This document shows positions 3,270-64,000 of a stretch of DNA of 64,000 nucleotides, piece by piece. The DNA comes from an uncultured bacterium (GTDB lineage: Bacteria; Patescibacteriota; JAHJAL01), in contig CALKWM010000013.1 of NCBI GenBank assembly GCA_938004065.1, forward strand, positions 75,914 to 139,913. The letters are read 5' to 3'. The number at the start of each line of letters is the position of its first letter. The first letter of the stretch is position 1. A program made the position numbers and the translations under genes. The notes under the pieces are model-generated. The model was not told the DNA's origin, made no database searches, and worked only from the letters and a program-made list of their open reading frames with translations.

Positions 3270-3281
3270 AAATATTAATTA

Positions 3282-3426
3282 ATGAGTAGTGCTAAAAAAA
3301 AGAAATATGGTATGGATCCCCGATCCGCCCGAGGCGGACAAGTTATCGTCCGCCCCCACCCAAGGCGGGCAGGCAAGGCGGATCGATTCGAGGATGACAG
3401 ATAAGAAATTTAACCAGCACTACTTA
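3282..3426. repeat. Repeat family A copy 1: structured GC-hairpin element just after a stop codon
   Basis: Conserved ends are aatgagtagtgctaa on the left and cagcactactta on the right, which are inverted. The conserved core is ggtatggatccccgatcc...cgattcgaggatgacagataag. GC hairpins ccgcccgaggcggac and cgcccccacccaaggcgggc sit inside the core. Further copies lie at 55639-55796 and 63902-64000. Confidence 0.6.
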
Positions 3427-3463
3427 TAAATTAAAATAGTAAATTTATCATTAAAATAAAAAA

Positions 3464-6473: not shown

Positions 6474-8342
6474 ATGTTTAAAAAAATAATTAATTTATGT
6501 TTTGTAGCGATGTTGGCAGTAAATGGATTGGTAGTGGACAATGTGTTGGCTGCTGATTATCAATCAAAATGGCTAGGACAAAGTAGTTATTTGACGTTGT
6601 CTGAGGGACAGGTGGAAACGGTGTGGGTGGAGTTTCAAAATACCGGTAGTGCCAATTGGTATCGTGATGGAGATAACGCTTTGCACCTGGGAACAGCCAA
6701 GGATTTGGATCGAAAGAGTATGTTTTATAAAGAATCGGATTGGCTTTCAATGAATCGAGTCAAAATGAAACAAGAAGTGGTAAAGCCGGGCGAGACAGCC
6801 AGATTTGAGTGGCAAATAGAGGCGCCATATCAATCGGGAGTGTATCATGAATATTTTCGGCCAGTGGCGGAAAATATCACTTGGCTCAATGATCAAAGTG
6901 TGTATTGGGAATGGCGAGTTATTGGCGGAGTCGGATTTGAAGAAATGTGTGCTTCCAAAGATAGCGTAACTCAAACCAATGTTTGTACCATGCCGGAACC
7001 ATGGATGTATGAATCGAGTTGGGCGGGGCAGAGTAGTTATCTGACTATGAATACAGGTGAAGTGAAAGATTTGTGGGTGGAATTTGAAAACAATGGTTTG
7101 GCCAGTTGGGTCCAGTCGGGTGATTTTGCAGTACGGTTGGGGACGGCGAATCCGATTGATCGGGCCAGTAAGTTTTATCACAGTTCTTGGCTTTCCAATA
7201 ATCGAGTGATGATGACGCAGTCGGTGGTGAAAGCGGGTGAAAAAGCGAAATTTAGTTTCAAAGTGCAGGCGCCCACTGTTCCAGGTACGTATTATGAATA
7301 TTTTCGGCCGGTGGTGGAAAATATTTCTTGGTTAAAGGATGAGGGTGTTTTTTGGAAAATTGAAGTTTTGTCGGAGGAATCAAATAAACCGGTTGATCCT
7401 CCAGTAATTAATCCGGATGACAATAACAATTATGATGGCAAAACGGGAGTACCGATAGCCAGCGGAGCGGCAAAGGTTTCTAGTGAGGGTGCTTTTGAGG
7501 TGTACAATGCTTATACCAATAAATTGATCAGTACAGTTGGTGCCGGGACACAAGTGGCGTTGAAATACGAGGACGGGAAATACAAAATATGGGTGGGAAA
7601 TTTGTACTATGAATCGCCCGATTATGTACAATTGCGAGCAAAAAATGGCGCGATATTGCGGGTGGATTCGTACAATGACATAAAATCCTGGAATTCCAGT
7701 TTGAATGACAATTTGTTTCGCGATACGATTGAAATTCGATATTCGGATATGACCAATCAAACTTGGATTATCAATGAATTGTCGATGGAGGATTATGTGG
7801 CGGGAATTGCTGAATCGGGCAATACGTCACCGGCCGAGTATCTCAAAGCAATGGCAATTGCCGGCAGGACGTATGTGACATATCATAAAAATCGCGGTGG
7901 TCGACATCCGGAAAATTTTATCGATTTATACAATAGTGTCAATGGCAATGGTGATGATCAAGTATATCGTGGTTATGGTTTTGAGATAAGAAATCCAAAT
8001 GTGGTGGATGCGGCCAAAAAAACAGTGGGGATGGTGGTAAAATATGATGGTAAAGTAGTAGTAACACCGTATTTTTCCCAGAGTGATGGTCGAACCAGAT
8101 CGTCTTTTGAGGTATGGGGCAGTACCAGTTATCCATGGTGTCAATCAGTTGATGATCCGTACAACAAAGGTAAAGAACTACGGGGACATGGAGTCGGATT
8201 GAGCGCCAGTGGGGCTTTGGCGTATGCTTCGGAAGAAGGAAAAAATTATGACTGGATATTGAAATACTATTATACCGGTATAGAAATTGGAACGATAAAT
8301 TCGGCTAGTGAAAGAGTGAGAGTGGGGATATATAAATTATAA
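6474..8342 (+). CDS. Secreted SpoIID/LytB-domain protein with two tandem roughly 140-aa N-terminal repeat domains
   Basis: Signal peptide MFKKIINLCFVAMLAVNGLVVDNVLAADY. Internal duplication of QSSYLT...EYFRPV...W blocks. The C-terminal region YVAGIAESGNTSPAEYLKAMAIAGRTYV...YFSQSDGRTRS...RGHGVGLSASGA matches the SpoIID/LytB signature. Confidence 0.7.
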   Translation: MFKKIINLCFVAMLAVNGLVVDNVLAADYQSKWLGQSSYLTLSEGQVETVWVEFQNTGSANWYRDGDNALHLGTAKDLDRKSMFYKESDWLSMNRVKMKQEVVKPGETARFEWQIEAPYQSGVYHEYFRPVAENITWLNDQSVYWEWRVIGGVGFEEMCASKDSVTQTNVCTMPEPWMYESSWAGQSSYLTMNTGEVKDLWVEFENNGLASWVQSGDFAVRLGTANPIDRASKFYHSSWLSNNRVMMTQSVVKAGEKAKFSFKVQAPTVPGTYYEYFRPVVENISWLKDEGVFWKIEVLSEESNKPVDPPVINPDDNNNYDGKTGVPIASGAAKVSSEGAFEVYNAYTNKLISTVGAGTQVALKYEDGKYKIWVGNLYYESPDYVQLRAKNGAILRVDSYNDIKSWNSSLNDNLFRDTIEIRYSDMTNQTWIINELSMEDYVAGIAESGNTSPAEYLKAMAIAGRTYVTYHKNRGGRHPENFIDLYNSVNGNGDDQVYRGYGFEIRNPNVVDAAKKTVGMVVKYDGKVVVTPYFSQSDGRTRSSFEVWGSTSYPWCQSVDDPYNKGKELRGHGVGLSASGALAYASEEGKNYDWILKYYYTGIEIGTINSASERVRVGIYKL

Positions 8343-8353
8343 AAAAACATTCC

Positions 8354-8416
8354 AAACTTTCCAAACATTTTCTGCGCCCTAGGCGCATCCGCCTTGGGCG
8401 GAAAACTTTCCAAACA
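8354..8416. repeat. GC-palindrome mini-element (family C) flanked by a 14-bp direct repeat
   Basis: The sequence aaactttccaaaca occurs at 8354-8367 and again at 8403-8416. Between the two copies lie twin hairpins gcgccctaggcgc and ccgccttgggcgg, downstream of the SpoIID-like gene. Confidence 0.5.
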
Positions 8417-8502
8417 AAATGAGTAGAAAGTAGAAAATGATAAATGCTAAATTGTAATATTGCTAAATTATTTGATAATTGATCATTGGAAATTAATTTA
8501 AG

Positions 8503-11023: not shown

Positions 11024-12325
11024 ATGAAGAAGCGAAGATGGCAGGGACAGATGACGGCTGAATTGTTGAAAAATTATTCAAAAAGAGAGCCGATGTGTCG
11101 GCATTTTTTGACGTGTGGCGGATGTAGTTTTCAGGATTTTGAATACAAGGATCAATTAGAAGTGAAAGCGAAAAAAGTGGGAGAGTTGTTTGATGGGTGT
11201 GGAATCTGTCACACTGAAATCCTGCATTGGCGGGATTCTGCTCCTTCTATTTTTGGAGGAGAATTTAAAGAATGGGGGTATCGGACGAGAATGGATTTAG
11301 TGGTAGGTAAAGCGGGAATTGGTTTGCGAAAAAAAAGACGATTTGATGAAATTGAATTTTTACAGGAGTGTTGGTTGATTGATAATAATGTTTTGCAGTT
11401 TTTAAAAGAAGTCTATCAAAAGGGAATTGAAGTAGGATTGATCCCGTATGATTTGGTGACACATGAGGGAGAATGGCGATACTTGAGTGTACGGATCAAT
11501 GAGAAAAATGAGTTGATGTTAATATTTGTAACGAAGAGGGGGGTGGAAAACAAAATCTCAAAACTCAAAACTCAAATCTCAAAATCACAACTCACAACTC
11601 AAAACTTTTCTGTCAAATCAATTTATCATGTGGTGAATGACGGGTTGGGAGATAGTAATTTTGGGGAGATAAAGAAATACTGGGGGGAAGAGTATTTGCA
11701 GTATTCAATATGCAATATTCAATATGCAATAGGACCAAATACGTTTTTTCAAAACAATATTCCTTTGGTAAATAAACTGGTGGATAAAATAGTGGATAAT
11801 GTGGACGAAGACGATAGAGTGTTAGATTTGTATTGTGGAGTGGGGACTTTGTCGTTACCGGTGGCTAAGAAATGCCGGGAAGTTTTGGGAGTGGAGTTGA
11901 TGGAAGAGAGTATTGGGTTGGCGAGGAAGAACGCTGTTAATAACAATATTGATAATGTGGAGTTTGAGGCGAAAAGTGTTGAAGATATATTTGATGGAAA
12001 CTCAAAATTTAAAGCTCAAAACTCAAAACCACAACTAAAAACTCAAAAACCGAATCTCAATGAATACAATGTATTGATGTTGGATCCGCCGAGGAAGGGA
12101 TTGGAGAAGGTGGCGGGAAAGTTGTTGGAATATGATTTTGATAAAATAGTATATATGTCGTGCAATCCGCTGTCGTTAGTGAAAGATTTGCAGGTTTTGG
12201 TGAGAAAATGGCAGATTGAAGAGGTGTCTTTGTGGGATTTGTATCCGCAGACACCGCATGTGGAAGTTTTGGTGTTGCTAAGAAACAAGAAACAAGAAAC
12301 AAGAAACAAGAAGCAAGTATTATGA
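11024..12325 (+). CDS. 23S rRNA (uracil-5)-methyltransferase, RlmD/RumA family, with in-frame low-complexity insertions
   Basis: Fe-S motif CRHFLTCGGCSFQDF. SAM-binding motif VLDLYCGVGTLSLP. DPPRKG motif. Inserts ISKLKTQISKSQLTTQN and NSKFKAQNSKPQLKTQKPN. The gene ends in an (aaacaag)n tandem repeat. Confidence 0.8.
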   Translation: MKKRRWQGQMTAELLKNYSKREPMCRHFLTCGGCSFQDFEYKDQLEVKAKKVGELFDGCGICHTEILHWRDSAPSIFGGEFKEWGYRTRMDLVVGKAGIGLRKKRRFDEIEFLQECWLIDNNVLQFLKEVYQKGIEVGLIPYDLVTHEGEWRYLSVRINEKNELMLIFVTKRGVENKISKLKTQISKSQLTTQNFSVKSIYHVVNDGLGDSNFGEIKKYWGEEYLQYSICNIQYAIGPNTFFQNNIPLVNKLVDKIVDNVDEDDRVLDLYCGVGTLSLPVAKKCREVLGVELMEESIGLARKNAVNNNIDNVEFEAKSVEDIFDGNSKFKAQNSKPQLKTQKPNLNEYNVLMLDPPRKGLEKVAGKLLEYDFDKIVYMSCNPLSLVKDLQVLVRKWQIEEVSLWDLYPQTPHVEVLVLLRNKKQETRNKKQVL

Positions 12326-12416
12326 ATTGTGAATGGTTGATCTCAAATAGTTTATAATTTTAAAAACTAATTTTTAGGAAAGAGGAAAATACTTTTTATA
12401 TTTAATATTTTTATTT

Positions 12417-13202
12417 ATGCGGGGAAATTCGGACAGATTTTATATCAAAGAGGGGTTGGGGTCGGATTTGTTGTGTATCAAAGACAAGGAATTGATCAGG
12501 CAGTGGCGGAAGGTGATGCGTTTGGGTGAGGGAGATGTGGTGCGGTTGTTTGATGGAAGCGGGTATGAATATCAATATTCAATATGCAATACGCAATATG
12601 CAAATAAAGCGCAATTGAAATTGATTGATAAACAATATTTTGAGGAAAAAGAAAATAAAGTTTTTTTGGGGTTTGGGGTTTTGCATGATCAGGCACGTAT
12701 GGAATGGATGTTGGAAAAGTGTACGGAGTTGGGAGTGGATAGGTTTATTCCTTTAGTTTGTGACAATTCGCAGCTTTATATGAGAAACTCAAAGCTCAAA
12801 ATTCAAAGTTCAAAACCACAACTCAAAACCAGTAAGCTTAAAAAACAGGAGAGGTTGGAGAAAAAGATTGTTGAGGCGTGTGAACAGTGTGGGAGAGTGA
12901 GAGTGCCGGGGATAGAAACAATTTGGTCCATAAATGATATTGATGATGTTGTAGGGGCGGACCCAAGTGTCCGCCCGAGGGTGATAGTATTGGATAAATT
13001 AAAAATTAGAAATGAAAAATTAAAAATTGATATATATAAAAATATTTTGTTATTGGTAGGACCGGAGGGAGGATGGAGTGAGAGGGAATTAAAATATTTT
13101 GCAGAAAATAATTTAGAATTTATGTCGGTGGGTGAAAATGTTTTGCGGGCGGAGACGGCAGCGGTGGCGGGAGTGGTAAGACAAGAAATAAGAAATAAGT
13201 AA
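12417..13202 (+). CDS. rsmE: 16S rRNA (uracil1498-N3)-methyltransferase RsmE with in-frame insertions
   Basis: N-terminal PUA-like region and the C-terminal LVGPEGGWSERE motif. Carries in-frame the same two insert families as the preceding gene, plus a GC-palindrome insert. Confidence 0.75.
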   Translation: MRGNSDRFYIKEGLGSDLLCIKDKELIRQWRKVMRLGEGDVVRLFDGSGYEYQYSICNTQYANKAQLKLIDKQYFEEKENKVFLGFGVLHDQARMEWMLEKCTELGVDRFIPLVCDNSQLYMRNSKLKIQSSKPQLKTSKLKKQERLEKKIVEACEQCGRVRVPGIETIWSINDIDDVVGADPSVRPRVIVLDKLKIRNEKLKIDIYKNILLLVGPEGGWSERELKYFAENNLEFMSVGENVLRAETAAVAGVVRQEIRNK

Positions 13203-13286
13203 TAAGAAATAAGTAATAAGCATTAAGTGTAAAGTAATAAGAAAAACCGTAATTAAAACGGTTTATTTCTTGTGAATAGAATTGAT

Positions 13287-17782: not shown

Positions 17783-17854
17783 TCCGGGGTAGCTCAGCGG
17801 TAGAGCAATTGACTGTTAATCAATGGGTCGTGGGTTCGAGCCCCACCCCCGGAG
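17783..17854 (+). tRNA. tRNA-Asn (anticodon GTT)
   Basis: Acceptor TCCGGGG pairs with CCCCGGA. D-arm is gctc-agcggta-gagc. Anticodon stem-loop is attga-CTGTTAA-tcaat. T-arm is gtggg-ttcgagc-cccac. Discriminator is G. Confidence 0.85.
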
Positions 17855-19435
17855 TATTATGGGATTTCGAGCGTATGCATTGAACAACTGTTCTTTGTTT
17901 ACGCTCTTTTTCATAGGTTCTAACATTCTTTTTATTCTATCAACTTCTTTTTTAGCTGGTATGAGAAAAGAGTAAAAGGAAAGAAGCTCTAAAAAGAGCT
18001 TCTGGTCCTTAAGGATAAAATTCGAGCCAAGAGAAATAAAGATTTCTTTTTTGGTTTCAATATCACCTTCATTAAATCTGATATAAGCATATTCGGCTAT
18101 TCCCAAATGTTTTTCGGCAGTTTCTAACCAGCTATTAAGTCTTTTATCAGAATTTTCGATAACTTCATTGATTCTACTTTTTTCTTTTAGGAGATCTGAT
18201 TTTTTGGTGATATATTCTTCTTCATTTAACTCGTTATTCAGGCGTAGCTCTAACAATCGGTCTAATTTTTTAGTACAATCAGTGTAGGCTTTATGCTGTG
18301 AGGCGATGATCAGGTTACGATCATTCGCTTCTTTTTTATTGTGCTTTTTGAGTTCTCCATAGAGATATTCGTGAAAGTCGGGTGGAATTGTAAATGAAGA
18401 TATAATTTCGTTGATCTGCTTTTCCAATTCTTTTACTTCTATACCTTTTTGATAGCATTTTTGCTTTCTGTGTTTTGTGCAGTGGTAGTAAGTATATTGG
18501 TGAATATTACCGTTTTTTTGTTTCTTGATTTTGGTTTCGGCGGTGATAGAGGCTCCACATTCTCCACACTTGATCAAACCAACATAAGCAAAGACTCTAT
18601 TTTTGGGTCTTGGTTTGCCTTCTCTACCTAAAATGAGTTGGATGCGATCATATTCTTCAATAGAGATAATTGCTTCATGCTTGCCTTTAAACCATTCGCC
18701 ACTATTTTTTGGATATTCAAATTCTCCATAATAAAAAGAACTGGTGAATATTCGGTAAATAGTGCTTCGGGAAAATTCCTTTCCTTGGCGGTTTGTTAAT
18801 TTCCATTTACTAAGGGCTATATGTCTAATTTGTGGGGGAGTGTATTTTCCGGTTAGCATAAGATCAAACATTCTACGGACCAACTCGAAACGGTCCGGAT
18901 CTTTGATAATTTCTTTTTCACCTTTCCGTTTAAAGGGATTGTGCATATAGCCAAGTGGGGCGTAGGTTGGAAGCCAACCACGTTTTGCTTTGGTCCGAAG
19001 ACCTCTTCTGGTATCAGTACTTAGGTCCATGATAAATTGATTGGCTACGCCCAATTCTACAGCCATAACGATAACATTATCAGTGGGATAGTAGCTTTGA
19101 CTATGAGTTTGAATATGTTTGATTATTCCTTGTTGAATCAACCAACTAATTTGACCACCGTCAATGGGGTTACGAGCTAATCGATTTAATTTCCAACATA
19201 ATATGCCCTGAGCTTCACCTTTGTTTATTCTTTGAATCATTTCGTTAAATATTTCTCTTCCTGGTGCTTTGGCTGATTTTGATTCAGAAAGAATTTCTAC
19301 AATGCGTATGTTTTTTTGTTCAGCAATTTTGGTTAATTCCTGAATCTGTGAATCAATTGAAGCCATTTGTCGATCTTCGTTTTCGGTTGATTTGCGAGCA
19401 TAAAGGAAATATTTTAGTCTTTGATCGTTTTTCAT
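17816..19435 (-). CDS. Large serine recombinase (integrase type); its 3' end overlaps the tRNA-Asn 3' end
   Basis: N-terminal resolvase catalytic domain YARKSTENEDRQMASIDSQ. Recombinase domain and a Cys-rich zinc ribbon (CGECGAS...YYHCTKH). 539 aa. Confidence 0.8.
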   Translation of the reverse strand: MKNDQRLKYFLYARKSTENEDRQMASIDSQIQELTKIAEQKNIRIVEILSESKSAKAPGREIFNEMIQRINKGEAQGILCWKLNRLARNPIDGGQISWLIQQGIIKHIQTHSQSYYPTDNVIVMAVELGVANQFIMDLSTDTRRGLRTKAKRGWLPTYAPLGYMHNPFKRKGEKEIIKDPDRFELVRRMFDLMLTGKYTPPQIRHIALSKWKLTNRQGKEFSRSTIYRIFTSSFYYGEFEYPKNSGEWFKGKHEAIISIEEYDRIQLILGREGKPRPKNRVFAYVGLIKCGECGASITAETKIKKQKNGNIHQYTYYHCTKHRKQKCYQKGIEVKELEKQINEIISSFTIPPDFHEYLYGELKKHNKKEANDRNLIIASQHKAYTDCTKKLDRLLELRLNNELNEEEYITKKSDLLKEKSRINEVIENSDKRLNSWLETAEKHLGIAEYAYIRFNEGDIETKKEIFISLGSNFILKDQKLFLELLSFYSFLIPAKKEVDRIKRMLEPMKKSVNKEQLFNAYARNPIILRGWGSNPRPID

Positions 19436-19611
19436 AGTAATAGAGATTAATGGATAAACTAATAGGACGGTTCTGGTTGACCCAACTTACCACTAATGGT
19501 TTGTCGGCAGAACCGCCCTGTTTAGGCGACAAAAATTCATTAGTGTAAAAAATTGTTGGGTCAACACTTATATTATAAAATATTTTAAGGTGCATAAAAA
19601 TCATTTTTTTG

Positions 19612-19947
19612 TCATGGAGGGTTTGTTTCGATCATGCCTTTATATCTTGATTTGTAGTATTTGATTTTAAGGCATTTAATACATCCGATTTTTTTGTTTA
19701 TAGTGTCGATGTAGATTATTCGGATTCTGCGATGGCAATTTGGGCAGGAAAACCAGTATCGTTGGCCATTAAACCTTGTTTTTGATATGGATAATTTAAT
19801 CGTTAAATCTTGAATAGAAACTTTTGATCGTATAAATTCTGATTTGGCAATCTGGTGGTAGTTTTTGATGATATTATCGATGTCAATTTTTTGATAATTC
19901 AAGTTTGTTAGATTTTTTCCTAAATCGTATGGCTTTATTGAATTCAT
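19612..19947 (-). CDS. Small zinc-ribbon protein (CxxC...CxxC), hypothetical
   Basis: FSCPNCHRR...GCIKCLK. Extremely AT-rich gene. Confidence 0.4.
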   Translation of the reverse strand: MNSIKPYDLGKNLTNLNYQKIDIDNIIKNYHQIAKSEFIRSKVSIQDLTIKLSISKTRFNGQRYWFSCPNCHRRIRIIYIDTINKKIGCIKCLKIKYYKSRYKGMIETNPP

Positions 19948-19952
19948 GTTTT

Positions 19953-20549
19953 TTAATTATTGTTAATAAATTCTTGTTTTTCTGATACAAAAGCATTTTT
20001 ACTTTGAATCTTGATATCAATAGATGGTGATTTGATTTGTTGGAGTAGAGATAGGGATGAATTAAATTGTCTATTGGCTCGATCAATTTCTTTACTAATT
20101 AGATAGCAGTATTGAATGCTTAATTTATTTACTGATTCTGAGCTAGAGCATTGACTGAGGATCCTTGAATATTGAATAATTTTTGTGTATGAGAGAGCAA
20201 TATTATTAGCCATGGCTTTTTCAATTGAGGTTGTGCATTGGTATTCTTTTATTATGTCTCGTGCGAATTGTATTGCCATTGGTCGGTATTCTTTTTTATG
20301 ACAAAAAGCTACAGTGTAACCTGTGTCTAAACCGAAGATATTAGAGAAATCATGAAATAATTCATCAATCTGTTTTTTCTTACTTTTTTTGCCAAGGTAA
20401 TGTTTTTTAAGAAGGATACCAATTTGATCTAATAAAACATCTGGATCGTGGTTTGTTTTGATTTTGTCTTTGACGAAATTTTTTATGTCTTCTGTGGTTT
20501 CCAATTGTTCAATTTGTTTTCTTTCAATTGGCTTAAGATTGTTTCGCAT
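19953..20549 (-). CDS. Hypothetical protein of the AT-rich element
   Basis: 198-aa ORF. Tightly packed with neighbours on the same strand. Confidence 0.4.
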   Translation of the reverse strand: MRNNLKPIERKQIEQLETTEDIKNFVKDKIKTNHDPDVLLDQIGILLKKHYLGKKSKKKQIDELFHDFSNIFGLDTGYTVAFCHKKEYRPMAIQFARDIIKEYQCTTSIEKAMANNIALSYTKIIQYSRILSQCSSSESVNKLSIQYCYLISKEIDRANRQFNSSLSLLQQIKSPSIDIKIQSKNAFVSEKQEFINNN

Positions 20550-20599
20550 AGTATTTAATTAATTATTAATAAATAAATAGATTTACCCCACACCCAATC

Positions 20600-21808
20600 T
20601 CACAAGTTAAGATTTGGGAATATTAATATTTTTTGTTGATTGTCTGGACCGTAATCTTGGACGATCAATCCCGCATTTTCCAACATAGGTAAAATTTCTT
20701 GTCTTAGTTTGTATTCAGGTAGAGGGTATTGGTAGGTTTGAAAGAATCTTTTCAAAATCTCTGGTCTACTTATTCCAATTCTTATATCTGGATAGTTTGA
20801 TATTTTTTCTTTATACAGAGGGAGAATAATTTCATTGAAAATACTATAAAGGTAGGGAGAGATATTTAATTCTTGGCTGACCGATATTTTGGACCATAGA
20901 TCATGGGCATAATTAATATCTTCTTCGTTGGCATATATGTTATTACCAACTTTTTTTCTAAACCAGAGATTAAGCAGGCTATAACATTTGACTAATGAAA
21001 TGAATCTTCCAATATCTCTTTGGTCGCGTGGTCTTAGTTTCTTTTTGGAGTCGAAAAATAATTTTTCTATTAAGTCGGGTTGTTCGATAATAATATTTTC
21101 TATTTTGGCTGATTTGATAGCCTCGATCCGATCAATAAGTGTTTGTCTTTCAGGATTATTTTGAATATTATTTTCATAAACTTCTTTGTTTGCTTCTTTG
21201 GTAATTTTAGTTTGTATTGACTCTTTTAATTTGTCTTGATTGGTGTCAGGTGAGAGCATGAGAAATCTTGTACTTTCCTGTTCGTCAATCTTGATACTTG
21301 CGCTACAGAAAATAACTGATGGGTAACCAATAATTATTGCTGTTTTAGTGCGGTGACCTCCTTTTTCTTTACGATCAGTTATCTTATTTATTAGTTCTTT
21401 TTTGTCATGAGAAAGTAATGGCCGGAATTTTTCGAGTAGATAATGATCTGGTTGGTCTAAAAAGATAATTATTTTTCTCGATAGGTTGATAATAGTTGTG
21501 TTGGTTTTTTGGTTGTATTCTCCTTGTTCATGAAAGAATGATGTTGGAGAACATGATCCAAGTATTAGTAAATCTTCTTTAGGGAAATAATTTGAGATTT
21601 CTAAGGGGATGTAACTTTTACCCGCTGATGAGGGGGCATTGAAACTAATATTGAATTGAGAATCATTTGTATATGCCGATAAACAACATAAAAATGTTGC
21701 TAGTTTATTGTGATTGTCTTTTTTGACCGTTAGGTCTAGAATTTTGATTATTTCCTCAGGAGTAATTGGATTGAAATTTTTATTAATAGAAATATTATTT
21801 TCTTTCAT
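20600..21808 (-). CDS. P-loop NTPase, possibly a primase/helicase-like replication protein of a mobile element
   Basis: Walker A motif NAPSSAGKSY and a Walker B-like IIFLDQPD. Sits adjacent to the recombinase. Confidence 0.45.
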   Translation of the reverse strand: MKENNISINKNFNPITPEEIIKILDLTVKKDNHNKLATFLCCLSAYTNDSQFNISFNAPSSAGKSYIPLEISNYFPKEDLLILGSCSPTSFFHEQGEYNQKTNTTIINLSRKIIIFLDQPDHYLLEKFRPLLSHDKKELINKITDRKEKGGHRTKTAIIIGYPSVIFCSASIKIDEQESTRFLMLSPDTNQDKLKESIQTKITKEANKEVYENNIQNNPERQTLIDRIEAIKSAKIENIIIEQPDLIEKLFFDSKKKLRPRDQRDIGRFISLVKCYSLLNLWFRKKVGNNIYANEEDINYAHDLWSKISVSQELNISPYLYSIFNEIILPLYKEKISNYPDIRIGISRPEILKRFFQTYQYPLPEYKLRQEILPMLENAGLIVQDYGPDNQQKILIFPNLNL

Positions 21809-21998
21809 GGTGATTTTGATTAATATATTTGGATAATTTTTTTTCTTCTGATGGAGTTAGGGGCTTGGAATAAACTACATAATACAAATTGAGAAATTTT
21901 TGATATTGGTCATAGGCCTCCTTATCACTTAAATCTTGATTAAAGTGTTTCTTTACCATTTGTTTAAACTTCTCAATTGTTTCTTTGCTGATAATCAT
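21795..21998 (-). CDS. Small hypothetical protein
   Basis: 67-aa ORF overlapping the upstream gene stop, as expected for an operon. Confidence 0.3.
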   Translation of the reverse strand: MIISKETIEKFKQMVKKHFNQDLSDKEAYDQYQKFLNLYYVVYSKPLTPSEEKKLSKYINQNHHERK

Positions 21999-22235
21999 TT
22001 ATGAGTGGTAAATCCTTGTCTTAAGCAGTTTTTGATTATATGCAAATAGAATTGGATCGACCTTGGCTTGGTGACTGAAATATAATTCGATAAGTCTATC
22101 GAGGTTGTCGTCGCGTATGATATAGAAGACGGTTGTGTTATCTTTGTTTTTTTCGGTGCTAGAAATACAGTATCCAGATGAAATAATGAACGAACAAAGA
22201 TTGAGATCTGATGATTTAAAATAGTTATTTTGCAT
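21999..22235 (-). CDS. Small hypothetical protein
   Basis: 78-aa ORF directly abutting the neighbouring gene. Confidence 0.3.
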   Translation of the reverse strand: MQNNYFKSSDLNLCSFIISSGYCISSTEKNKDNTTVFYIIRDDNLDRLIELYFSHQAKVDPILFAYNQKLLKTRIYHS

Positions 22236-22393
22236 AATTGTTTTATTAATAGTAATTTTTTTCCAGTTGCTATTTTTCAGAATAGAGTAAATATGAGATT
22301 CCCTGTATTGGTCCTCGTGAAAATTTGAATAATAAAAAAATATGGTTAGAAAACCATATTTTAAAAAGTTATTAACACCTATTTGAAGGACTG

Positions 22394-23515
22394 TTACTTC
22401 TTGATTATTTCGTATTTAACATAATTTAGGACATATCCATGACCTTTTTTCTTGTTTATCAAATTATGTCTAACATTTAAATATTTTATAAATCTTTTGT
22501 TTATCTTTTTTATGGCTTTGTTTATGGATGATATTCCAGATTTGTATTGAATTTTAGAATTTAATTCTGTACTGGATATTGGGTTTTTATTAAGTAGTAA
22601 AACAATTTTTTTGCAATTATTTTTTATAGGATATATGAATTTGCGGTTGAAAATTTCCTTATATATGCCGTATTTTTTGCTAATATGAATAGTTGTTTTC
22701 CCATTGTTGTCGTTTTGTTCACATATCAAGTTTTGATATGTGTCGTTATTAATAAGTTGGTCAATTATGTGTAAGTGGAGTCTGTGCACATCGGAATATA
22801 TTTCGTCAATATTGTATGAATCAGAATAGTCTATTTTGCCGGATATTAAACATTTTATTTCATTACTCATCAGTTTGTATTCCACATATTGATTGGTTAA
22901 ATATGTTTTATCAATTAATTTTTCTAATTTTTTAGATTCATAAATTATTAGATAAATATTTATGAGATTATTAAGACTAGCCCATAATTTGGTGATGCTT
23001 TCTGTTTCGTAGTTATTTTTTGTTGTTAAATAGTTTCGAAATGTATCTTCGTATTTAAATTTTTTTTCTTGTTTCTTTCTATTGTGTTTTTGATTAAGAA
23101 AAAATTTATTTACCAATTTTGAATATGGTGATTTGCCAATCTTGAATATAATTTCTTTTATGGTTTCGTAATTATATTTGGTGTTAATTATTGAAGGAGT
23201 GAATTCTCTTGCTGGGGGAAATAGTAATTCAGAATATTCGGTATTTGTTGTAATGAAATTGAGACTATTACTATTGTTTGTAATAATTGTTTGAAGCTTC
23301 TTAATTATTTTATTTGTAGTATTATTTATTTTATTCTGTTTGTTGGTTAAATTGTTGTAAGCATTTCGGCTTTCTTTTATTTTTTTGTTAAGTATTTCTT
23401 TGGTTATTGTGTTGTCATTTATAAATTTTATATAGTCTGCAACATTGATGAAGAATATTTTTGGGTCTTGTGAAATTAAATTAAAATTTTGATTAATTGA
23501 ATCGATTAAATTCAT
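22394..23515 (-). CDS. Hypothetical Asn/Lys/Ile-rich protein (373 aa) of the AT-rich element
   Basis: Long ORF in a segment of roughly 25% GC. No motif recognised. Confidence 0.45.
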   Translation of the reverse strand: MNLIDSINQNFNLISQDPKIFFINVADYIKFINDNTITKEILNKKIKESRNAYNNLTNKQNKINNTTNKIIKKLQTIITNNSNSLNFITTNTEYSELLFPPAREFTPSIINTKYNYETIKEIIFKIGKSPYSKLVNKFFLNQKHNRKKQEKKFKYEDTFRNYLTTKNNYETESITKLWASLNNLINIYLIIYESKKLEKLIDKTYLTNQYVEYKLMSNEIKCLISGKIDYSDSYNIDEIYSDVHRLHLHIIDQLINNDTYQNLICEQNDNNGKTTIHISKKYGIYKEIFNRKFIYPIKNNCKKIVLLLNKNPISSTELNSKIQYKSGISSINKAIKKINKRFIKYLNVRHNLINKKKGHGYVLNYVKYEIIKK

Positions 23516-23922
23516 ATAAATTGTAATAGAAATATAATATTTAAACTGTTTTTATGTTAGTTTAATTGTATTATCTTATCAAATAAAGACTGACTAGATT
23601 TGAATTTTGGTGATAAAAAAGATTATCATTAATGTGGTTAGTCATATTACTGAATAGTTAACCGTATAATTTAGAGCCTAAACCTTATAAAGTAATATTT
23701 TTAAGGCATGGCGAAAAAACCTTATGCATAAAGATGGTTCTTCTGACCAGCTTACTTGCATAAGGTCTATATCCGAAAGGGTATAGGGTGATCTCGAAAG
23801 AGAAAGCCGAGTTGTGTTAGAAGAGCCTTTTTTGTATTTTGAAAGAAAATTTATTTAGGATGGACAAAGTAATTATAAATTTGGTGTAATTCTTTATTTA
23901 AATAAATTATTGGGTAATTATT

Positions 23923-24672
23923 ATGGACAAAGAAAAAGAAGGTGAGCAAATAGTTTCGGTCAAATCGTCTAATTTTGGTTGCCTTACTGTTTTTATTTGG
24001 TTCGTAGGATTTATGTGTTTATTTTGGGGGTTAATAATAATTTCGAATTTTTCGATTGTTAATTTTGTTTCTGGTGTTTTGTTGGTAATCGCAGGTTTAA
24101 TTATGTTTCCACCTGTGAGAAATATGATTGAGAAAAAAACAGGAATAAAATTATCCAATGCTTTGTCTTGTGTGTTAGTTTTTATTCTTTTTGTAATAGG
24201 AATTGTGCTTGGTTCTTCATTTAGACAGATAAACAGTAATTTGGATAATAAGTCAGATAATAAACAAGAAACAATCAAGACAATAAATATGGAGAAGTTG
24301 GTCGGTTTTGATTTGCGGAACAAACAACCTATTGGGGATGAGAATATTTATACATATAATCCAGTAAAGAATAATGATTATTCTATTGCTGTTTTAACGA
24401 GTAAAACAGCTAGCAATATTCATGAAGATAGCTATTTATTGGAAAAAAATAGTAAAGATATTAATGGAATAAATGTTGAAGTTGGGTATAAAGATTTTTC
24501 AGAAAAGGATGGTGTAGTACTTACAAGAAAATATGAAGGTCTTGCTTTTGATTTTGAGTATAATAATCGATTTTACTCTGGGGAAGTTTCTAATTTAAAA
24601 GGTGAATCAGTAAAAGAGAAATTGGATGAAATTTTAGTTAATTTTCTGCAATCAGTCCAGGGTAAATCTTAA
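23923..24672 (+). CDS. Membrane protein with N-terminal TM helices and a C-terminal soluble domain
   Basis: Two or three hydrophobic helices in the first roughly 100 aa. Confidence 0.45.
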   Translation: MDKEKEGEQIVSVKSSNFGCLTVFIWFVGFMCLFWGLIIISNFSIVNFVSGVLLVIAGLIMFPPVRNMIEKKTGIKLSNALSCVLVFILFVIGIVLGSSFRQINSNLDNKSDNKQETIKTINMEKLVGFDLRNKQPIGDENIYTYNPVKNNDYSIAVLTSKTASNIHEDSYLLEKNSKDINGINVEVGYKDFSEKDGVVLTRKYEGLAFDFEYNNRFYSGEVSNLKGESVKEKLDEILVNFLQSVQGKS

Positions 24673-33838: not shown

Positions 33839-35878
33839 ATGAAAAAATACAATCTAATAAAAGGCAGATATTGGGAGCAGAAATCTTTATCTTCGAAGGA
33901 TGATAAGGGTGTAAAAGAATGGCAAAAACCGTTTCAAGAGGCAACCGAGAAAGCGGCGAGGCGAACCGAGAGAGAACAGGGTGAAAAGATCCCGAGAGGC
34001 AATGTGGAGAAGATGATTGGCAATTATCTGGATCGCTGGGAGCGGATTGAAGAACAGCGTGGTGGATTGCTGCGAAGATTTTTGGAGCGAAAATATATCA
34101 TCAAGCCGGAAAATATCACCGATGACTATATCCGTAATGTGCTGCTGGGCAACTATGCTGAACTCAAAGGATACGACCGGGAAAAACTGGCCAATGCGGA
34201 AGTGAAAGCGCAAATTGGCAAAATGTTTGAGCAGGAAACGGGCAAAAATCCCAGTAATTTTTCCATATCCAAAAAAGAAAAAATTGATGAGCAAGAGCGC
34301 ATTGTAGCCGATCAGAAAGCCAGTCTGAACGGGTGGCTGGACTATCTGGGTGGGGAGGAAGCCAAAGAAAATTATCCCCGAGAGTTCCGTTATTGGGCGA
34401 TGGCGGAGGTGGTGAAACTGGGAGCGCAAAACAAGGACAAACTGGATTATACCAAGCGCGATCAATATACGGCTGCACCTTTCCCGGAATTGAATCAACA
34501 GGCGCTGGCCAAGGTGTTTGACGAGGTGAAGAGGAAACTGGAAAAAGAACCGTCGCAAATCGGGCTAAACGAAGAAAAAAAGAGGGAGGAATATGAAAAA
34601 AGATTAAAGGGAATGAATTTCGGCAAGCTTTATGGCTGGATGATTGATTATATCAATTCATTGAAACTGCCAATGGAGCGGCTGCCGATCACCCAGGGAG
34701 AGTGGAAAAAATTTGCCAAAAATTCTGATCCCAAAGAATTGACCAGGACAATTCAGGGATTCAATACCGGCTGGTGTATCGCCGGTGAAGGGACGGCCGG
34801 CAGTTATCTGAAAAATCAGGATATCTGGATATATTATTCGGCCGATCAGGAAGGTCAAAACTCAATCCCGCGGGCGGCGGTGGTGACGGATGGCTCAAAA
34901 GTTTTGGAGGTGCGCGGTATTATCCAGACCAGGGAAGTGAAACAGCATCTGGATGACTATATCGCGCCGGTGGTGGAAAAGAAGCTAAAGGAACTGCCGG
35001 GCGGGGAAGAATGGAAGGCGGGCATGGAAGACATGAAATATCTGGCGGAAATTCATTTCAAGCATATGCAAAAAAAACCATTCGACAAGAGTGATCTGGA
35101 ATTTGTCTATGAGCTGGATCATCCGATCAGGAGTATGGGTTACGGGAAGGATCCGCGCATCGAAGAGATCAGAGAAACCAGGGATCTCGAAGCCGATATA
35201 TTGACGGTATTTGATTGTCAGTCGAATGAGATTGTTCACAGTCCAGAAGAACTTAATCAAAACACCAAAGCATATGTCGGAAAATGGAATGTTGATGTCT
35301 GGCAGAAAGTCAAAGAATATCCCAACATCAAACATCTCTTCGAATCATTTCCGGATAAGAAAATATTCATGCGAAAACTGACCACTGATCCAAATGTTGA
35401 CTCGCCTCAGTCCGCCAAAGAAGCTCTGGAGAGTAAGAATATATATGTAGCTGATTGGGCAAAAGATATTTTAGCTAAAACCAAATTCAACCCGGAAAAA
35501 CGAGAATATGAACTGGTGCGATTTACGGTGGCCGATCTTGGGTTTCCTGACGGCGCAACCACGGCGGAAATAATTGGTACGAAAAATGATAAGGATGATA
35601 ATGGCCAACCCGCTCCTTTTACTAGAGGCCGAATGACTGAGCTAGGTCTCTATCTTTGTCCGGCCGAGGTCGGGCCACATTTACGGTTGCAAAACTCCAG
35701 TCAAGATTGGATGTTGATTGCCATGGAACCCATTATCGGCTCCGGTGGCGCTCCGAGCGTGTTCCGTCTGCACTACGGCGGCGGCCGGCTGGAGCTGGAT
35801 GCGTACTACGCTGGGCCGGACGAGCACTGGCTTTCTGCCTATCTTTGGGTCTTCTCTGCCCGCAAGTTTGATACTTAG
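33839..35878 (+). CDS. DGR target protein 1 (679 aa) with a C-terminal variable repeat in a putative C-type-lectin-fold domain
   Basis: The C-terminal roughly 40 aa are encoded by the VR that matches the TR except at adenines. Paralogue of the next gene. Confidence 0.75.
   Translation: MKKYNLIKGRYWEQKSLSSKDDKGVKEWQKPFQEATEKAARRTEREQGEKIPRGNVEKMIGNYLDRWERIEEQRGGLLRRFLERKYIIKPENITDDYIRNVLLGNYAELKGYDREKLANAEVKAQIGKMFEQETGKNPSNFSISKKEKIDEQERIVADQKASLNGWLDYLGGEEAKENYPREFRYWAMAEVVKLGAQNKDKLDYTKRDQYTAAPFPELNQQALAKVFDEVKRKLEKEPSQIGLNEEKKREEYEKRLKGMNFGKLYGWMIDYINSLKLPMERLPITQGEWKKFAKNSDPKELTRTIQGFNTGWCIAGEGTAGSYLKNQDIWIYYSADQEGQNSIPRAAVVTDGSKVLEVRGIIQTREVKQHLDDYIAPVVEKKLKELPGGEEWKAGMEDMKYLAEIHFKHMQKKPFDKSDLEFVYELDHPIRSMGYGKDPRIEEIRETRDLEADILTVFDCQSNEIVHSPEELNQNTKAYVGKWNVDVWQKVKEYPNIKHLFESFPDKKIFMRKLTTDPNVDSPQSAKEALESKNIYVADWAKDILAKTKFNPEKREYELVRFTVADLGFPDGATTAEIIGTKNDKDDNGQPAPFTRGRMTELGLYLCPAEVGPHLRLQNSSQDWMLIAMEPIIGSGGAPSVFRLHYGGGRLELDAYYAGPDEHWLSAYLWVFSARKFDT
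35735..35865 (+). repeat. DGR variable repeat VR1
   Basis: 131 bp aligned to the TR at 38441-38571. There are 24 mismatches, all at TR adenine positions. The 3' segment tgggtcttctctgcccgcaa is conserved and looks like an IMH (initiation of mutagenic homing) sequence. Confidence 0.85.
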
Positions 35879-35973
35879 ATTCTTAGACTCTTTGCTTTTC
35901 TTTTGACTCTTTGTAGCTTTGACCCTTTGACCCTTTGATTTTTGAATCGCGCATTAATTAAGAAAGAAAAATT

Positions 35974-38118: not shown

Positions 38119-38440
38119 ATTCTTAGACTCTTTGCTTTTCTTTTGACTCTTTGTAGCTTTGACCCTTTGACCCTTTGATTTTTCTTGGGGTATTCTATTA
38201 TATTAAAATCAGATTGATTGTTTCGGACGGCTACGGCTTTCCGAAAATCATTCCGACCGGTGCAAGTTAAGTATGTTATCGGCCAAGGCTGGTAACAGAG
38301 ATTTGTATTTTGTCATTAAAAAAGAACAAACTTGGTGTGGTGTGCTCCGGGTGATTTTTGATCACAAATAATATTCAGTCCAGTCTTTTTTGAGCCAATC
38401 AACCAGACGGACGGTGGCGAGGATGGCACACCATACGAAA

Positions 38441-38571
38441 ATCGACTCCGATGGCAATCCGAACGTGTTCAATCTGAACTACAACGACGACCAGCTGAAG
38501 CTGAATGCGAACAACGCTGAGCCGGACAAGCACTGGAATTCTGACAATCATTGGGTCTTCTCTGCCCGCAA
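38441..38571 (+). repeat. DGR template repeat (TR)
   Basis: Adenine-rich copy of the VR. Every TR-VR difference maps to a TR adenine. The overlapping ORF 38390-38710 is judged non-coding. Confidence 0.85.
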
Positions 38572-38594
38572 TTATGCTCTTTTCCGTGACTTGA

Positions 38595-38915
38595 TCACAA
38601 ATCGCGGTTTTTTCTGGCTGGGTTATCTAGGTTTTTATGCCAGCCGCCCAGCATCCGACCGGCTTCGATTAATTTCTCGGAAATTGCTGTATATTTGCCA
38701 TTGGGAATGATCCTGGCTTCCCAAGCTATTGAAGTCAGGAATTTAAGGACATCGAGAGTTAGGATGCATTTGGTTAGCTGATCTTTTTTCTGATCTTTGG
38801 CGGAATAGTAGGCGGCATGTGTCAATTCCAACAGATCGAGAAATTTATTTTCAATTCTTTGGCCGATAGTAAAACGGGAGGTTTTGGGAATATGGGGAAC
38901 AAGATCAATCCACAA
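38595..38915 (-). CDS. avd: DGR accessory variability determinant (Avd-like four-helix-bundle protein)
   Basis: 106 aa. Resembles the four-helix-bundle / 23S-rRNA-intervening-sequence protein family (TIGQRIENKFLDLLELTHAAYY...) to which Avd belongs. Sits between the TR and the RT. Confidence 0.7.
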   Translation of the reverse strand: MWIDLVPHIPKTSRFTIGQRIENKFLDLLELTHAAYYSAKDQKKDQLTKCILTLDVLKFLTSIAWEARIIPNGKYTAISEKLIEAGRMLGGWHKNLDNPARKNRDL

Positions 38916-38962
38916 CAGATATCCCTCTTTGATCCGAAAGAGGATCGAAGGAAGTTCTTTAC

Positions 38963-38981
38963 GAGAGAGAGAGAGAGAGAG
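38963..38981. repeat. (GA)9 dinucleotide microsatellite between the avd and RT genes
   Basis: gagagagagagagagagag read directly from the sequence. Confidence 0.8.
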
Positions 38982-39034
38982 TAAGAAGGCGGCCGCGATT
39001 TCATAGTTATGAAGATATTATTTCAATAGATAAT

Positions 39035-39988: not shown

Positions 39989-40119
39989 CTAGTGAGCGAG
40001 GGTGTGGGGTAATAGTTGGCTCTCTATAAAACAAGTTCTAACATCGTGTATTGCATCCGCCCAAGGCGGACAGGCTGGAGTTTAGTTTTTGAAAGCACGC
40101 TTTGTAGGCGTGTTTTTGC
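39989..40119 (+). repeat. Repeat family B copy 4, carrying a nested GC palindrome
   Basis: ctagtgagcgagggtgtggggtaatag...gttctaacatcgtgtattgc, then the inserted atccgcccaaggcggacaggct, then ggagttt, then the terminator gcacgctttgtaggcgtgtttttgc. Confidence 0.6.
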
Positions 40120-43333: not shown

Positions 43334-43405
43334 TGAGGAGGGGTGTGGGGTAACTAGCATGTAACCACTAAAGCGGTTCGAACTAAAGTGTCCACCGAAT
43401 CGGCG
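43329..43405 (+). repeat. Repeat family B copy 5 (box 1 supplies the TAG stop of the CotH gene)
   Basis: aaactagtgaggaggggtgtggggtaactagcatgtaacc, then gcggttcgaac...ccaccgaatcggcgg. Confidence 0.55.
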
Positions 43406-43539
43406 GATGCATGGATTATTTAGATGAGAGGAACCGAGCTTTACTCTCGTAGTTCGCTACTCTCATTGTTCCCCTTTGTTAAGGAATAAAAAAAGACCAA
43501 ATGAATGGTTATTTATGAAAAATCAATGTATCTAGTTGT

Positions 43540-55195: not shown

Positions 55196-55639
55196 TTGGT
55201 GAAATACCAATTACTATTTTTATTTATGGACAAAAAACTAAAAAACGTGTGGCCGGTATCGCTATTTTTGGTGTTGATTGTGTTGATAAGCGGTTGTGAT
55301 TATGGTCAAGAGATTGTCGAAAATACAAATCAAAATGATTTAAATATTTTGGACAATGGTAACGATCGGGAAGTGGGGGAGATTGATTACCAGTATATCG
55401 ATGAAAAATCCGGGGAGACTATTGAAGATGATGGAGGTGCGGCCCTTGTATCCGAAGTTAAAAAATTGATTGTGGATGGAAATAAATGTATCGGTTGCGG
55501 TAAATGTGCCAGGACGGCATCGGTAAATTTTAGTATGGAAAACGGGACGGCGATGGTGATTTCGCAGGATGGTCTTGACAGTGTTGTAGTTGATGGTGCG
55601 ATCAAAGGATGTCCTGTGCGAGCAATTCAAATTATTTAA
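55196..55639 (+). CDS. Ferredoxin domain protein with a lipoprotein-type signal peptide
   Basis: N-terminal hydrophobic segment with the lipobox LISGC. C-terminal CIGCGKCARTA...CPVRAI single-cluster Fe-S motif. Confidence 0.55.
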   Translation: MVKYQLLFLFMDKKLKNVWPVSLFLVLIVLISGCDYGQEIVENTNQNDLNILDNGNDREVGEIDYQYIDEKSGETIEDDGGAALVSEVKKLIVDGNKCIGCGKCARTASVNFSMENGTAMVISQDGLDSVVVDGAIKGCPVRAIQII

Positions 55640-55796
55640 TGAGTTGTGCTAATTAGAAAAACAAAATATGGATTGGATCCCCGATCCTGCATCCGAGCAT
55701 TCGCCGGACAGGTTCGCCGGACAAGTTATCGAAGCGCCCGCCGATTCGGCGGACTTTCGACTCGAGGATGACAGATAAAAAAATAAACTAGCACAA
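55639..55796. repeat. Repeat family A copy 2
   Basis: aatgagttgtgctaa...ggatccccgatcc...ccgccgattcggcgg...cgactcgaggatgacagataa...ctagcacaa. Confidence 0.6.
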
Positions 55797-55831
55797 ATAA
55801 TTAATTAAAAATTTTTGAAAATTTTTAAATT

Positions 55832-63873: not shown

Positions 63874-63901
63874 TGACCAATTACTGATTTAAAAGTAAAT
63901 T

Positions 63902-64000
63902 AATGAGTAGTGCTAATTAATTTTCTTATCTGTCATCCTCGAATCGAAAGCCATTTTAAGGCGTTTCGATATCGGGGATCTATACCATATTTCTTATTTT
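63902..64000. repeat. Repeat family A copy 3 (core inverted relative to copies 1 and 2; truncated by the window end)
   Basis: aatgagtagtgctaa is followed by the reverse complement of the conserved core (cttatctgtcatcctcgaatcg...atcggggatctataccatatttctt). Confidence 0.55.

Follow-up and report, generated by a model that had tools for sequence, protein, structure and literature searches.

A repeat family with terminal inverted repeats and an embedded TGTC-type hairpin in a Patescibacteria genome is probably a nonautonomous mobile element

The 64,000-nt stretch of DNA analyzed here, referred to as the window, comes from an uncultured member of the Patescibacteria (assembly GCA_938004065.1, contig CALKWM010000013.1, positions 75,914 to 139,913). 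It is AT-rich (~36% GC) with a strong positive GC skew, its genes lie nearly all on the plus strand, and the closest named homologues of its proteins are found in Patescibacteria. Dispersed among these genes are three copies of a small repeat, here called family A, for which a first-pass annotation made from the sequence letters had offered two readings: a structured small RNA (sRNA) or RNA stability element, or a miniature inverted-repeat transposable element (MITE) that accretes GC palindromes. Here, we describe the architecture of family A, its relation to a hairpin family found across bacterial phyla, and a related genome from which one copy is precisely absent.

Architecture of the three copies

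Measured from one terminal inverted repeat (TIR) to the other, copy 1 (c1) spans positions 3282-3427 (146 nt), copy 2 (c2) positions 55639-55801 (163 nt), and copy 3 (c3) positions 63903-64017 (115 nt). As the first-pass annotation had recognized, c3 runs past the window end; its last 17 nt were retrieved from the parent contig (L001 11050-11164). All three of the claimed copies are present, at unrelated loci and in both orientations: even when 3 mismatches are tolerated, the window has exactly three matches to the 17-mer TCGAGGATGACAGATAA (0.21 expected by chance) and exactly three to the 20-mer ATATGGWWTRGATCCCCGAT (0.03 expected), and the TIR ATGAGTAGTGCTAA matches three times at up to 2 mismatches (0.26 expected). 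The inversion described for the core of c3 is real but extends to the entire element, the arms of c3 being 87-93% complementary to those of c1 and c2; only the core had appeared inverted because the TIRs are near-symmetric, each being the inverted repeat of the other. With respect to the plus-strand genes alongside, two copies point one way and one the other. A start 1-30 nt after the upstream stop codon holds for c1 (12 nt) and c3 (29 nt) but not for c2 (-1 nt), which sits between the Fer4_13 and Ferric_reduct genes and with its first base supplies the final A of the TAA stop codon of Fer4_13.

In the orientation of c1, the order of parts is a 14-nt TIR, an A-rich spacer, a box L ending in ATGGATCCCCGAT, a variable GC-rich core, a box R (TCGAYTCGAGGATGACAGATAA), an A-rich spacer of 11 nt, and the second TIR. 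TIRs bound the element in all three copies, as had been proposed, and agree at 11/14 positions in c1, 11/14 in c2, and 13/14 in c3, with the same A-to-T change at position 7 in both TIRs of c2. The expected pairing of the boxes was borne out as well: they form an 8-bp stem (ATCCCCGA/TCGAGGAT) that contains a single C.A mismatch when c1 and c2 are read on the plus strand; read on the opposite strand, this position is a U.G wobble. The resulting fold has two tiers, a terminal stem formed by the TIRs and an inner stem formed by the boxes, with hairpins nested in the loop of the latter. The variable GC hairpins of the core had been correctly seen, but the core sizes given for them have to be revised, the loops between the stem arms measuring 64 nt in c1, 77 nt in c2, and 29 nt in c3.

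The inner hairpin resembles the CGTC-tagged superfamily of repetitive extragenic palindromes (REPs) described by Di Nocera, De Gregorio and Rocco in 2013 (PMC3733652). REPs of this superfamily have a CGTC tag, often changed to TGTC or CCTC, a stem of 8-9 bp starting with A-T and T-A, a loop of 4-5 nt, and a CCA tail; no dedicated transposase is known for them, an associated tyrosine transposase is reported to be lacking, and Neisseria dRS3 and Rickettsia RPE-4 and RPE-6 are among their members. In all three copies of family A, an unpaired TGTC tag lies directly 5' of the stem AUCCUCGA/UCGGGGAU, which is identical throughout, comprises 8 bp including one U.G pair, and starts with A-U and U-A; the unpaired 3' tail is CCA in c1 and c2 and CUA in c3. 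The 5' and 3' sequences of the cores are conserved, as the first-pass annotation had stated, but their membership in a described cross-phylum hairpin family had been missed. Family A departs from the superfamily in its loop, which has 29-77 nt with nested hairpins instead of 4-5 nt, and in its surrounding TIR shell with target duplication.

The REP features, named according to PMC3733652, lie on the minus strand in c1 and c2 and on the plus strand in c3. In c1, the left flanking direct repeat taatta (3276..3281), a presumed target-site duplication by analogy with c3 that agrees with the right flank at 5/6 positions, is followed by the gene-proximal TIR ATGAGTAGTGCTAA (3282..3295, +), the REP 3' arm with its CCA tail (UCGGGGAU-CCA; 3313..3323), the 64-nt loop (3324..3387), the REP 5' arm with its TGTC tag (UGUC-AUCCUCGA; 3388..3399), the distal TIR (reverse complement ATAAGTAGTGCTGG; 3414..3427, -), and the right flanking direct repeat aaatta (3428..3433). 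GC hairpins nested in this loop comprise TCCGCCcgaGGCGGA (3324-3338), GGCGGAC-N8-GTCCGCC (3333-3354), and an outer stem GATCCGCC/GGCGGATC. The corresponding parts of c2 are the left direct repeat tattta (55633..55638), the gene-proximal TIR ATGAGTTGTGCTAA (55639..55652, +), the 3' arm with CCA tail (55674..55684), the 77-nt loop (55685..55761), the 5' arm with TGTC tag (55762..55773), the distal TIR (reverse complement ATTATTTGTGCTAG; 55788..55801, -), and the right direct repeat taatta (55802..55807); the loop contains the direct repeat TTCGCCGGACAGG/TTCGCCGGACAAG and the hairpin TCGAAG-GCCCGCCgattcGGCGGAC-CTTTCGA, which has a relative at 43390-43421. In c3, the gene-proximal TIR ATGAGTAGTGCTAA (63903..63916, +) is followed by the tag and 5' arm (UGUC-AUCCUCGA; 63931..63942), the 29-nt loop with one nested hairpin, TCGAAAgCC-N7-GGcgTTTCGA (63943..63971), the 3' arm and tail (UCGGGGAU-CUA; 63972..63982), and, outside the window, the other TIR TTAGTACTACTCAT (64004-64017).

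The hairpin in other genomes

A scan for the 17-mer in one genome per GTDB species returned 71 loci, most of which are not chance matches. These loci carry hairpins of the form CTGGATCC(T/C)CGAT-loop-GTCGAGGATGACAG, which on the other strand read (C/T)GTC-AT-stem-loop-stem-AT-CCA(G), and their hosts are sponge-associated Nitrospirales, Flavobacteriales, Alpha- and Gammaproteobacteria, Binatia, and five Patescibacteria contigs. The pair ATGGATCCCCGAT ... TCGAGGATGACAGATAA occurs as a plain hairpin with a 5-6-nt loop in L036 (Patescibacteria) and L003 (Flavobacteriales) and with a 27-nt loop in L064 (Peribacteria). L036 carries ATGGATCCCCGATCAAGTCGAGGATGACAGATAA and L003 has the same stem, and comparison by eye found 12-13-nt and 17-nt boxes as in family A. 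Long-loop variants of this stem were also seen in L021, L045, and L064. The fetched loci together contained 198 such hairpins, versus 3 in shuffled sequence, and 133 of 189 candidates defined by their flanks had at least 5 pairs immediately within those flanks, versus ~1% after inner shuffling, with 13 different stems among them. An alignment of 78 short-loop hairpins had changes on both sides at 4 of 7 stem pairs; only this covariation is informative there, and not the percentage paired, because the sequences were chosen for pairing. No TIR was found in any fetched locus outside the lineage. Because the boxes recur around short loops elsewhere and the TIR does not, we regard the REP as an older, widespread module and the TIR shell as lineage specific.

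The same U.G wobble position was found in REPs of several phyla, and among hairpins with a single wobble the TGTC strand is favored 30 to 4, although this reflects only ~7 versus 4 distinct sequence types. The position of the U.G pair, the TGTC-strand bias, the paired change in the TIRs of c2, and the conservation of the REP foot are points for a constraint at the single-strand level.

Several observations on REPs were made alongside. In sponge-associated Nitrospirales (L011, L014, L015, L031, and others), TGTC-type REPs are densely packed into arrays that reach 16 per 8 kb; their stems fall into several covarying types, the spacers are purine rich, and loops can contain nested hairpins. An in-frame, translated REP (VIPAKAGIQKDGSPIKSRMTDN) lies just before the KYDG motif of an intact ATP-dependent DNA ligase in L036 (5566-7425, -), and another (DGILDFSRMTDK) in a 592-aa open reading frame (ORF) of L042 (309-2087, -), judged from its translation to encode a putative CCA-adding/HD-type enzyme; both match the intragenic REPs reported in replication and repair genes (PMC3733652). 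A Legionellaceae contig (L070, 6792-6838) has a head-to-tail 30-nt tandem repeat, CCGCTACGCGTTTTCGAGGATGACAGATAA, containing the 17-mer. In the window, a hairpin scan for GAT-stem-ATGAC detected no further REPs. A REP-like match, TGTCATT-N11-AATCCAG with a 3-bp stem, lies inside the methionyl-tRNA synthetase gene (57676-57705, -); it scored 16.6 bits (E 0.09) with R1, a covariance model of the 78 short-loop REPs, and is either a chance match or a decayed intragenic REP.

An empty site and competing explanations

The locus of c3 has a gene order shared with relatives, ABC-3 and then 2-hydroxyacid dehydrogenase, with HisRS and/or Fur downstream. In L085, which stems from an independent ENA assembly and encodes a 93% identical dehydrogenase, the site of c3 is precisely empty: the intergenic sequence is ~98% identical to that of the window save for a clean 121-nt gap comprising the element and AAATTA. 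L085 reads ...aaaagTAAATTAcgtaaaaat... where the window reads ...TAAATTA[ATGAGTAG...CTACTCAT]AAATTAcgt.... Written as alleles, the empty form is AAAAG-TAAATTA-CGTAAAAAT and the filled form AAAAG-TAAATTA-[ATGAGTAGTGCTAA...TTAGTACTACTCAT]-AAATTA-CGTAAAAAT, the latter holding the 115-nt TIR-bounded element and a 6-bp (at most 7-bp) duplication of AAATTA. The two copies of aaatta lie at 63897..63902 and, outside the window, at 64018-64023; the empty site has one. The closer relative L091 (96% identity) is filled at this site, whereas the syntenic L086 (73%) and L088 (67%) have unrelated spacers in which no family A sequence was found. Given this distribution, insertion of c3 after the split from L085 is the simplest history. 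The first-pass annotation had suggested looking for target-site duplications and had named conservation of copies at identical loci in distant relatives as a refutation of mobility; the former search found a 6-7-bp duplication for c3 against the empty site, with flanks agreeing at only 5/6 for c1 and c2, and c3 was absent at the matching locus from L085, L086, and L088.

Flanks of the WAWTTA type also surround c1 (taatta/aaatta) and c2 (tattta/taatta), compared with a perfect aaatta/aaatta for c3. With its perfect duplication and one TIR mismatch, versus three TIR mismatches each in c1 and c2, c3 looks the youngest. Searches for further empty sites returned none: the 933-aa neighbor of c1 has no homologue other than itself, and relatives of the Ferric_reduct neighbor of c2 were found only at 54% identity. 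In one of these, L092, the Fer4_13-Ferric_reduct gap is 4 nt, versus 192 nt here. Logan contigs, which are independent short-read assemblies, end at the identical base within c3 in two samples, and one contig begins inside c2; such breaks are the expected behavior of a repeat with further near-identical genomic copies.

Family A is small (115-163 bp, below the ~400 bp typical limit), holds no gene, and differs in presence between strains, c3 being absent from L085 and present in L091. We therefore interpret it, with a probability of about 0.75, as a nonautonomous MITE that contains a TGTC-type REP, the loop of which gathers GC palindromes. Such an element would insert at AT-rich WAWTTA sites and duplicate 6, possibly 7, bp. 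From the TIRs and the target duplication, we infer a staggered-cut transposase of the DDE type, which would be supplied in trans. The interior would be a REP of the CGTC/TGTC superfamily, with TGTC tag, 8-bp stem, and CCA tail, and its loop would have been expanded by nested GC-rich mini-palindromes of a type found alone in this genome. The location of the copies just after stop codons may be explained by the AT-rich intergenic target together with selection purging insertions into genes and promoters. The MITE accreting GC palindromes, one of the two readings offered at the outset, is thus supported by the TIRs, the empty site with its duplication, the occurrence in both orientations, and the solo GC hairpins described below.

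A number of results weigh against this interpretation. Only one empty site was found, and strictly it may reflect precise deletion between 6-bp repeats. For c1 and c2 the duplications are imperfect, and in such AT-rich surroundings their 5/6 matches carry little weight. Pfam tables were available for ~80 kb of contig DAIUKQ010000005.1 (positions 31,050-110,936, with the window at 38075-102074); they contained no transposase or insertion sequence with matching TIRs, and a large serine recombinase and a reverse transcriptase were the only recombination-type genes. No family A copy was detected outside the lineage in JGI metagenomes, plasmids, phages, or the fetched loci: a BLAST search of c1 against plasmid and phage collections gave no match, a metagenome scan with CGAGGATGACAGATAAN{9,13}AGCAC gave 2 chance matches with no hairpin, and a viral scan with the 17-mer gave 5 chance matches. 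Conservation is higher in the foot boxes of the REP than in the TIRs, an unusual pattern if the TIRs alone matter for transposition. Finally, the end-to-end alignment of R1 with c3 scored no more than 11.3 bits (E 1.9), and the model does not bridge the long loops of c1 and c2. Because of these R1 results and the long loops, we call the core a long-loop derivative and not a canonical REP.

The better conservation of the REP foot, together with the wobble bias toward one strand, a GTAG within the TIR, and the folding of the whole element as a long hairpin in single-stranded DNA (z -4.6 to -5.4), might also be expected of an element of the REPIN or IS200/IS605 type, moved as single-stranded DNA by an HUH/RAYT tyrosine transposase acting at the hairpin foot, the apparent duplication then being a repeated recognition sequence. 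We consider this very improbable. The flanking hexamers vary among copies, which suits duplicated targets and would be unexpected of a fixed element end. The ends of IS200/IS605 elements are not known to be mutual inverted repeats, nor are these elements known to make a target duplication. No Y1_Tnp domain was found in the Pfam tables, and CGTC REPs were reported without an associated tyrosine transposase (PMC3733652). Membership in the REPIN/RAYT system proper, which involves doublets of GTAG REPs, was rejected because the GTAG of family A lies inside the TIR and is not the tag of the palindrome and because no Y1_Tnp is present in the ~80 kb.

The variable core bears on another alternative. 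The core of c2 contains the nested stem of c3 with a GC-richer tip, GCCCGCCgattcGGCGGAC, plus ~42 extra nt upstream; c1 and c2 have ...GGACAAGTTATCG in common, and c1 has two TCCGCC/GGCGGA units. Core-type GC mini-palindromes (TCCGCC-N3-GGCGGA type) are also found by themselves at 8373-8402, 12955-12976, 40056-40070, and 43389-43407, the last of these showing 78% complementarity to a portion of the c2 core. On the plus strand of the window, TCCGCC is found only 10 times, in at least half of the cases within such a hairpin. The larger cores are in the older-looking copies c1 and c2, which fits accretion over time and is also compatible with descent from different master copies. Family A might alternatively be an in-situ mosaic, comparable to the bacterial interspersed mosaic elements (BIMEs) of E. 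coli and the Neisseria intergenic mosaic elements (NIMEs), in which a pre-existing intergenic palindrome, now seen as the TIRs, took up first a REP and later GC palindromes, independently at each locus, and the 115-163-bp unit never moves as a whole. The solo mini-palindromes would agree with this, as would the short direct repeat AAGAAAT flanking the REP within the TIR shell, the hairpin-within-loop nesting common in Nitrospirales loci, and the nesting of REPs in longer palindromes that PMC3733652 reports for H. neapolitanus and A. variabilis. However, the empty site lacks the whole unit including the TIRs and keeps one 6-bp repeat, no REP-free TIR palindrome was found in the window or the fetched loci, and the three copies have the same spacers and box flanks, implying descent from one composite ancestor. 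This history is accordingly quite improbable.

Compared with shuffled sequence, c1 folds very stably as RNA (z -4.5 and -5.6), as does c3 (RNA z -3.2 to -3.5; DNA z -5.4), both strands of these copies beating the shuffles as RNA or DNA (z -3.2 to -5.6); the fold of c2 is weaker (z -1.4 to -1.6). Rfam 15, which the first-pass annotation had proposed to search, was run on the whole window at the gathering threshold, and c1 and c2 were scanned at permissive E values; no family matched, and only noise was found at family A (best scores, SAM-VI 17.4 bits versus a gathering threshold of 57.5 and tracrRNA 20.5 versus 70). On 12 related loci, Rfam likewise returned no family for the REP hairpin. Around c1 and c2, no T-run or terminator-like site and no promoter signal above chance background was detected. 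As to compensatory changes, for which the first-pass annotation had suggested a check, c2 has one in its TIR stem, and the box stem is identical in all three copies. Called ORFs of 40 aa (3282-3404, c1) and 36 aa (55668-55778, c2) are both in public protein catalogues as singleton clusters, one of them as MGYP006906714159. Coding potential was rejected, since the frame in which the GATCCCCGAT box is read differs between these ORFs, c3 is interrupted by early stops and has no called ORF, and the clusters are singletons. A literature search by sequence words and REP-derived peptides (RFRGNDG, PAFAGMT, and others) returned nothing useful.

In view of the stable folds, the repeats might be functional paralogues of a structured RNA element, such as an sRNA or a stabilizer or attenuator in 3' untranslated regions (UTRs) or within operons, kept for the RNA fold. 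Each copy follows a plus-strand stop codon at a distance of 0-29 nt, the mismatch of the REP stem becomes on one of the strands a U.G wobble, which recurs in other phyla and shows the 30-to-4 preference, and the c2 TIR stem has its compensatory change; according to PMC3733652, moreover, REPs of other bacteria are thought to act on mRNA. We nevertheless find such a primary identity unlikely. In c1 and c2, the strand that allows the wobble runs antisense to the flanking genes, but in c3 it is the sense strand, and the 30-to-4 bias shrinks to few distinct types. With lengths of 29-77 nt, the core varies too much to adopt a single conserved fold, and the fold of c2 does not surpass those of its shuffles. 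Neither an Rfam family nor a U-tract or above-chance promoter was found, the element is absent at the same locus from the 93% relative and from distant syntenic relatives, and TIRs with target duplication are a signature of DNA transposition. When transcribed in operons, the hairpin may incidentally alter mRNA 3' ends or stability, as a side effect. Family A is a real repeat and probably a fairly ordinary selfish one, not an RNA gene.

Known systems, other features and implications

Modular intergenic repeats with conserved ends and a variable number of internal palindromes, located downstream of genes and transcribed as hairpins, are represented by the REPs and BIMEs of E. coli, the NIMEs of Neisseria, and the pneumococcal BOX elements. 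To our knowledge, these mosaics are not bounded by TIRs plus a duplication, have not been shown to move as units, and have no sequence relation to family A. The GC clusters of yeast mitochondria and the Rickettsia palindromic elements are GC-rich palindromes that spread in an AT-rich genome, including nested and in-frame insertions; as far as we know, they differ from family A in belonging to another domain or lineage, having no sequence relation to it, and spreading by a different or unknown mechanism. The Chunjie MITE of Geobacter uraniireducens and the Correia elements of Neisseria have TIRs and target duplications and insert into operons without breaking them, as does c2. Their TIRs and targets differ from those of family A, Correia duplicating TA instead of the WAWTTA hexamers seen here, and we know of no embedded REP in either.

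Chunjie is cited in the study of Coxiella burnetii QMITE2 (Wachter et al. 2018; PMC5896051), which appears to be the closest architectural precedent. As described there, QMITE2 measures 150-190 bp, is found mainly in 3' UTRs, contains a GTAG REP, and has TIRs as well as direct repeats of 7-11 nt. Like family A, it is a noncoding MITE with flanking repeats of variable sequence (7-11 nt versus 6-7 nt) and an embedded REP, lies mainly in 3' UTRs and intergenic regions, and sometimes donates the stop codon of the upstream gene. The two differ in REP type (GTAG versus TGTC/CGTC) and in host (Gammaproteobacteria versus Patescibacteria); in family A, no IS1111-like insertions into the REP were seen, and the loop is instead expanded by nested GC hairpins. 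Since its REP is of the TGTC type, family A would be an analogue and not a member of QMITE2, the architectures having been compared from the text of PMC5896051. With the CGTC REP superfamily, family A shares the TGTC tag, the 8-bp stem starting A-T/T-A, the CCA tail, the location downstream of genes, the lack of an associated transposase, and, in relatives, in-frame intragenic copies (the ligase of L036, and L042). The main text of PMC3733652 does not contain the terms "target site," "duplication," and "nested," and neither Patescibacteria nor Nitrospirota are among the five phyla that it lists for CGTC REPs; later checks found no coverage of Patescibacteria either.

The window contains further features of interest. 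A diversity-generating retroelement occupies 33839-39988, with a template repeat at 38441-38576, an RVT_1 reverse transcriptase at 39035-39988, and two paralogous ORFs (33839-35878 and 35974-38118), each of which carries at its 3' end one of two identical variable repeats (35735-35870 and 37975-38110); 25 of the 26 mismatches between template and variable repeats are at template adenines. The gene of the large serine recombinase (17816-19435, -) overlaps the 3' end of a tRNA-Asn gene (17783-17854), and beyond it lies a low-GC block with reversed AT skew, the called genes of which are on the minus strand up to ~23.5 kb; the region 17783-24000 is probably an integrated element. At 23675-23808 (+), a match to LOOT RNA was detected (Rfam RF03000; 70 bits versus a gathering threshold of 46.4). 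A second repeat family, AACTAGTGAG-GGGTGTGGGGTAACTAG, has five copies (20576-20609 on the minus strand, and 28302, 33612, 39986, and 43328), often followed by the hairpin AAAGCACAGTTTATGACTGTGTTTTT. Intergenic tandem runs of 7-8-nt words (ttccaaac, ctcaaaac, aagaaac, caatatg, and ggaaattg) occur at 8340-8460, 11539-12842, and 12280-13244, and such runs are also present in the 73% relative L086 (2030-2230).

A full-text literature search returned no paper describing MITEs in Patescibacteria. The polymorphism between strains makes family A probably a recently mobile MITE in a genome of this group, also known as the candidate phyla radiation (CPR). In practical terms, the element breaks short-read assemblies and seeds spurious ORFs of 36-40 aa in public protein catalogues. 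The CGTC/TGTC REP superfamily extends to CPR bacteria and Nitrospirota, beyond the five phyla of the 2013 survey, and family A provides a concrete case of such a REP inside a unit with TIRs and target duplication, which bears on how orphan REPs move. It is a doubtful extension that family A shows one way in which orphan CGTC/TGTC REPs travel, as the core of a TIR-bounded, target-duplicating MITE, with the loop as a landing pad for further GC palindromes. If this were true, the occurrence of the same REP type and U.G position in Patescibacteria, Nitrospirales, and Alphaproteobacteria would point to spread between phyla or to a conserved factor acting on the TGTC strand.

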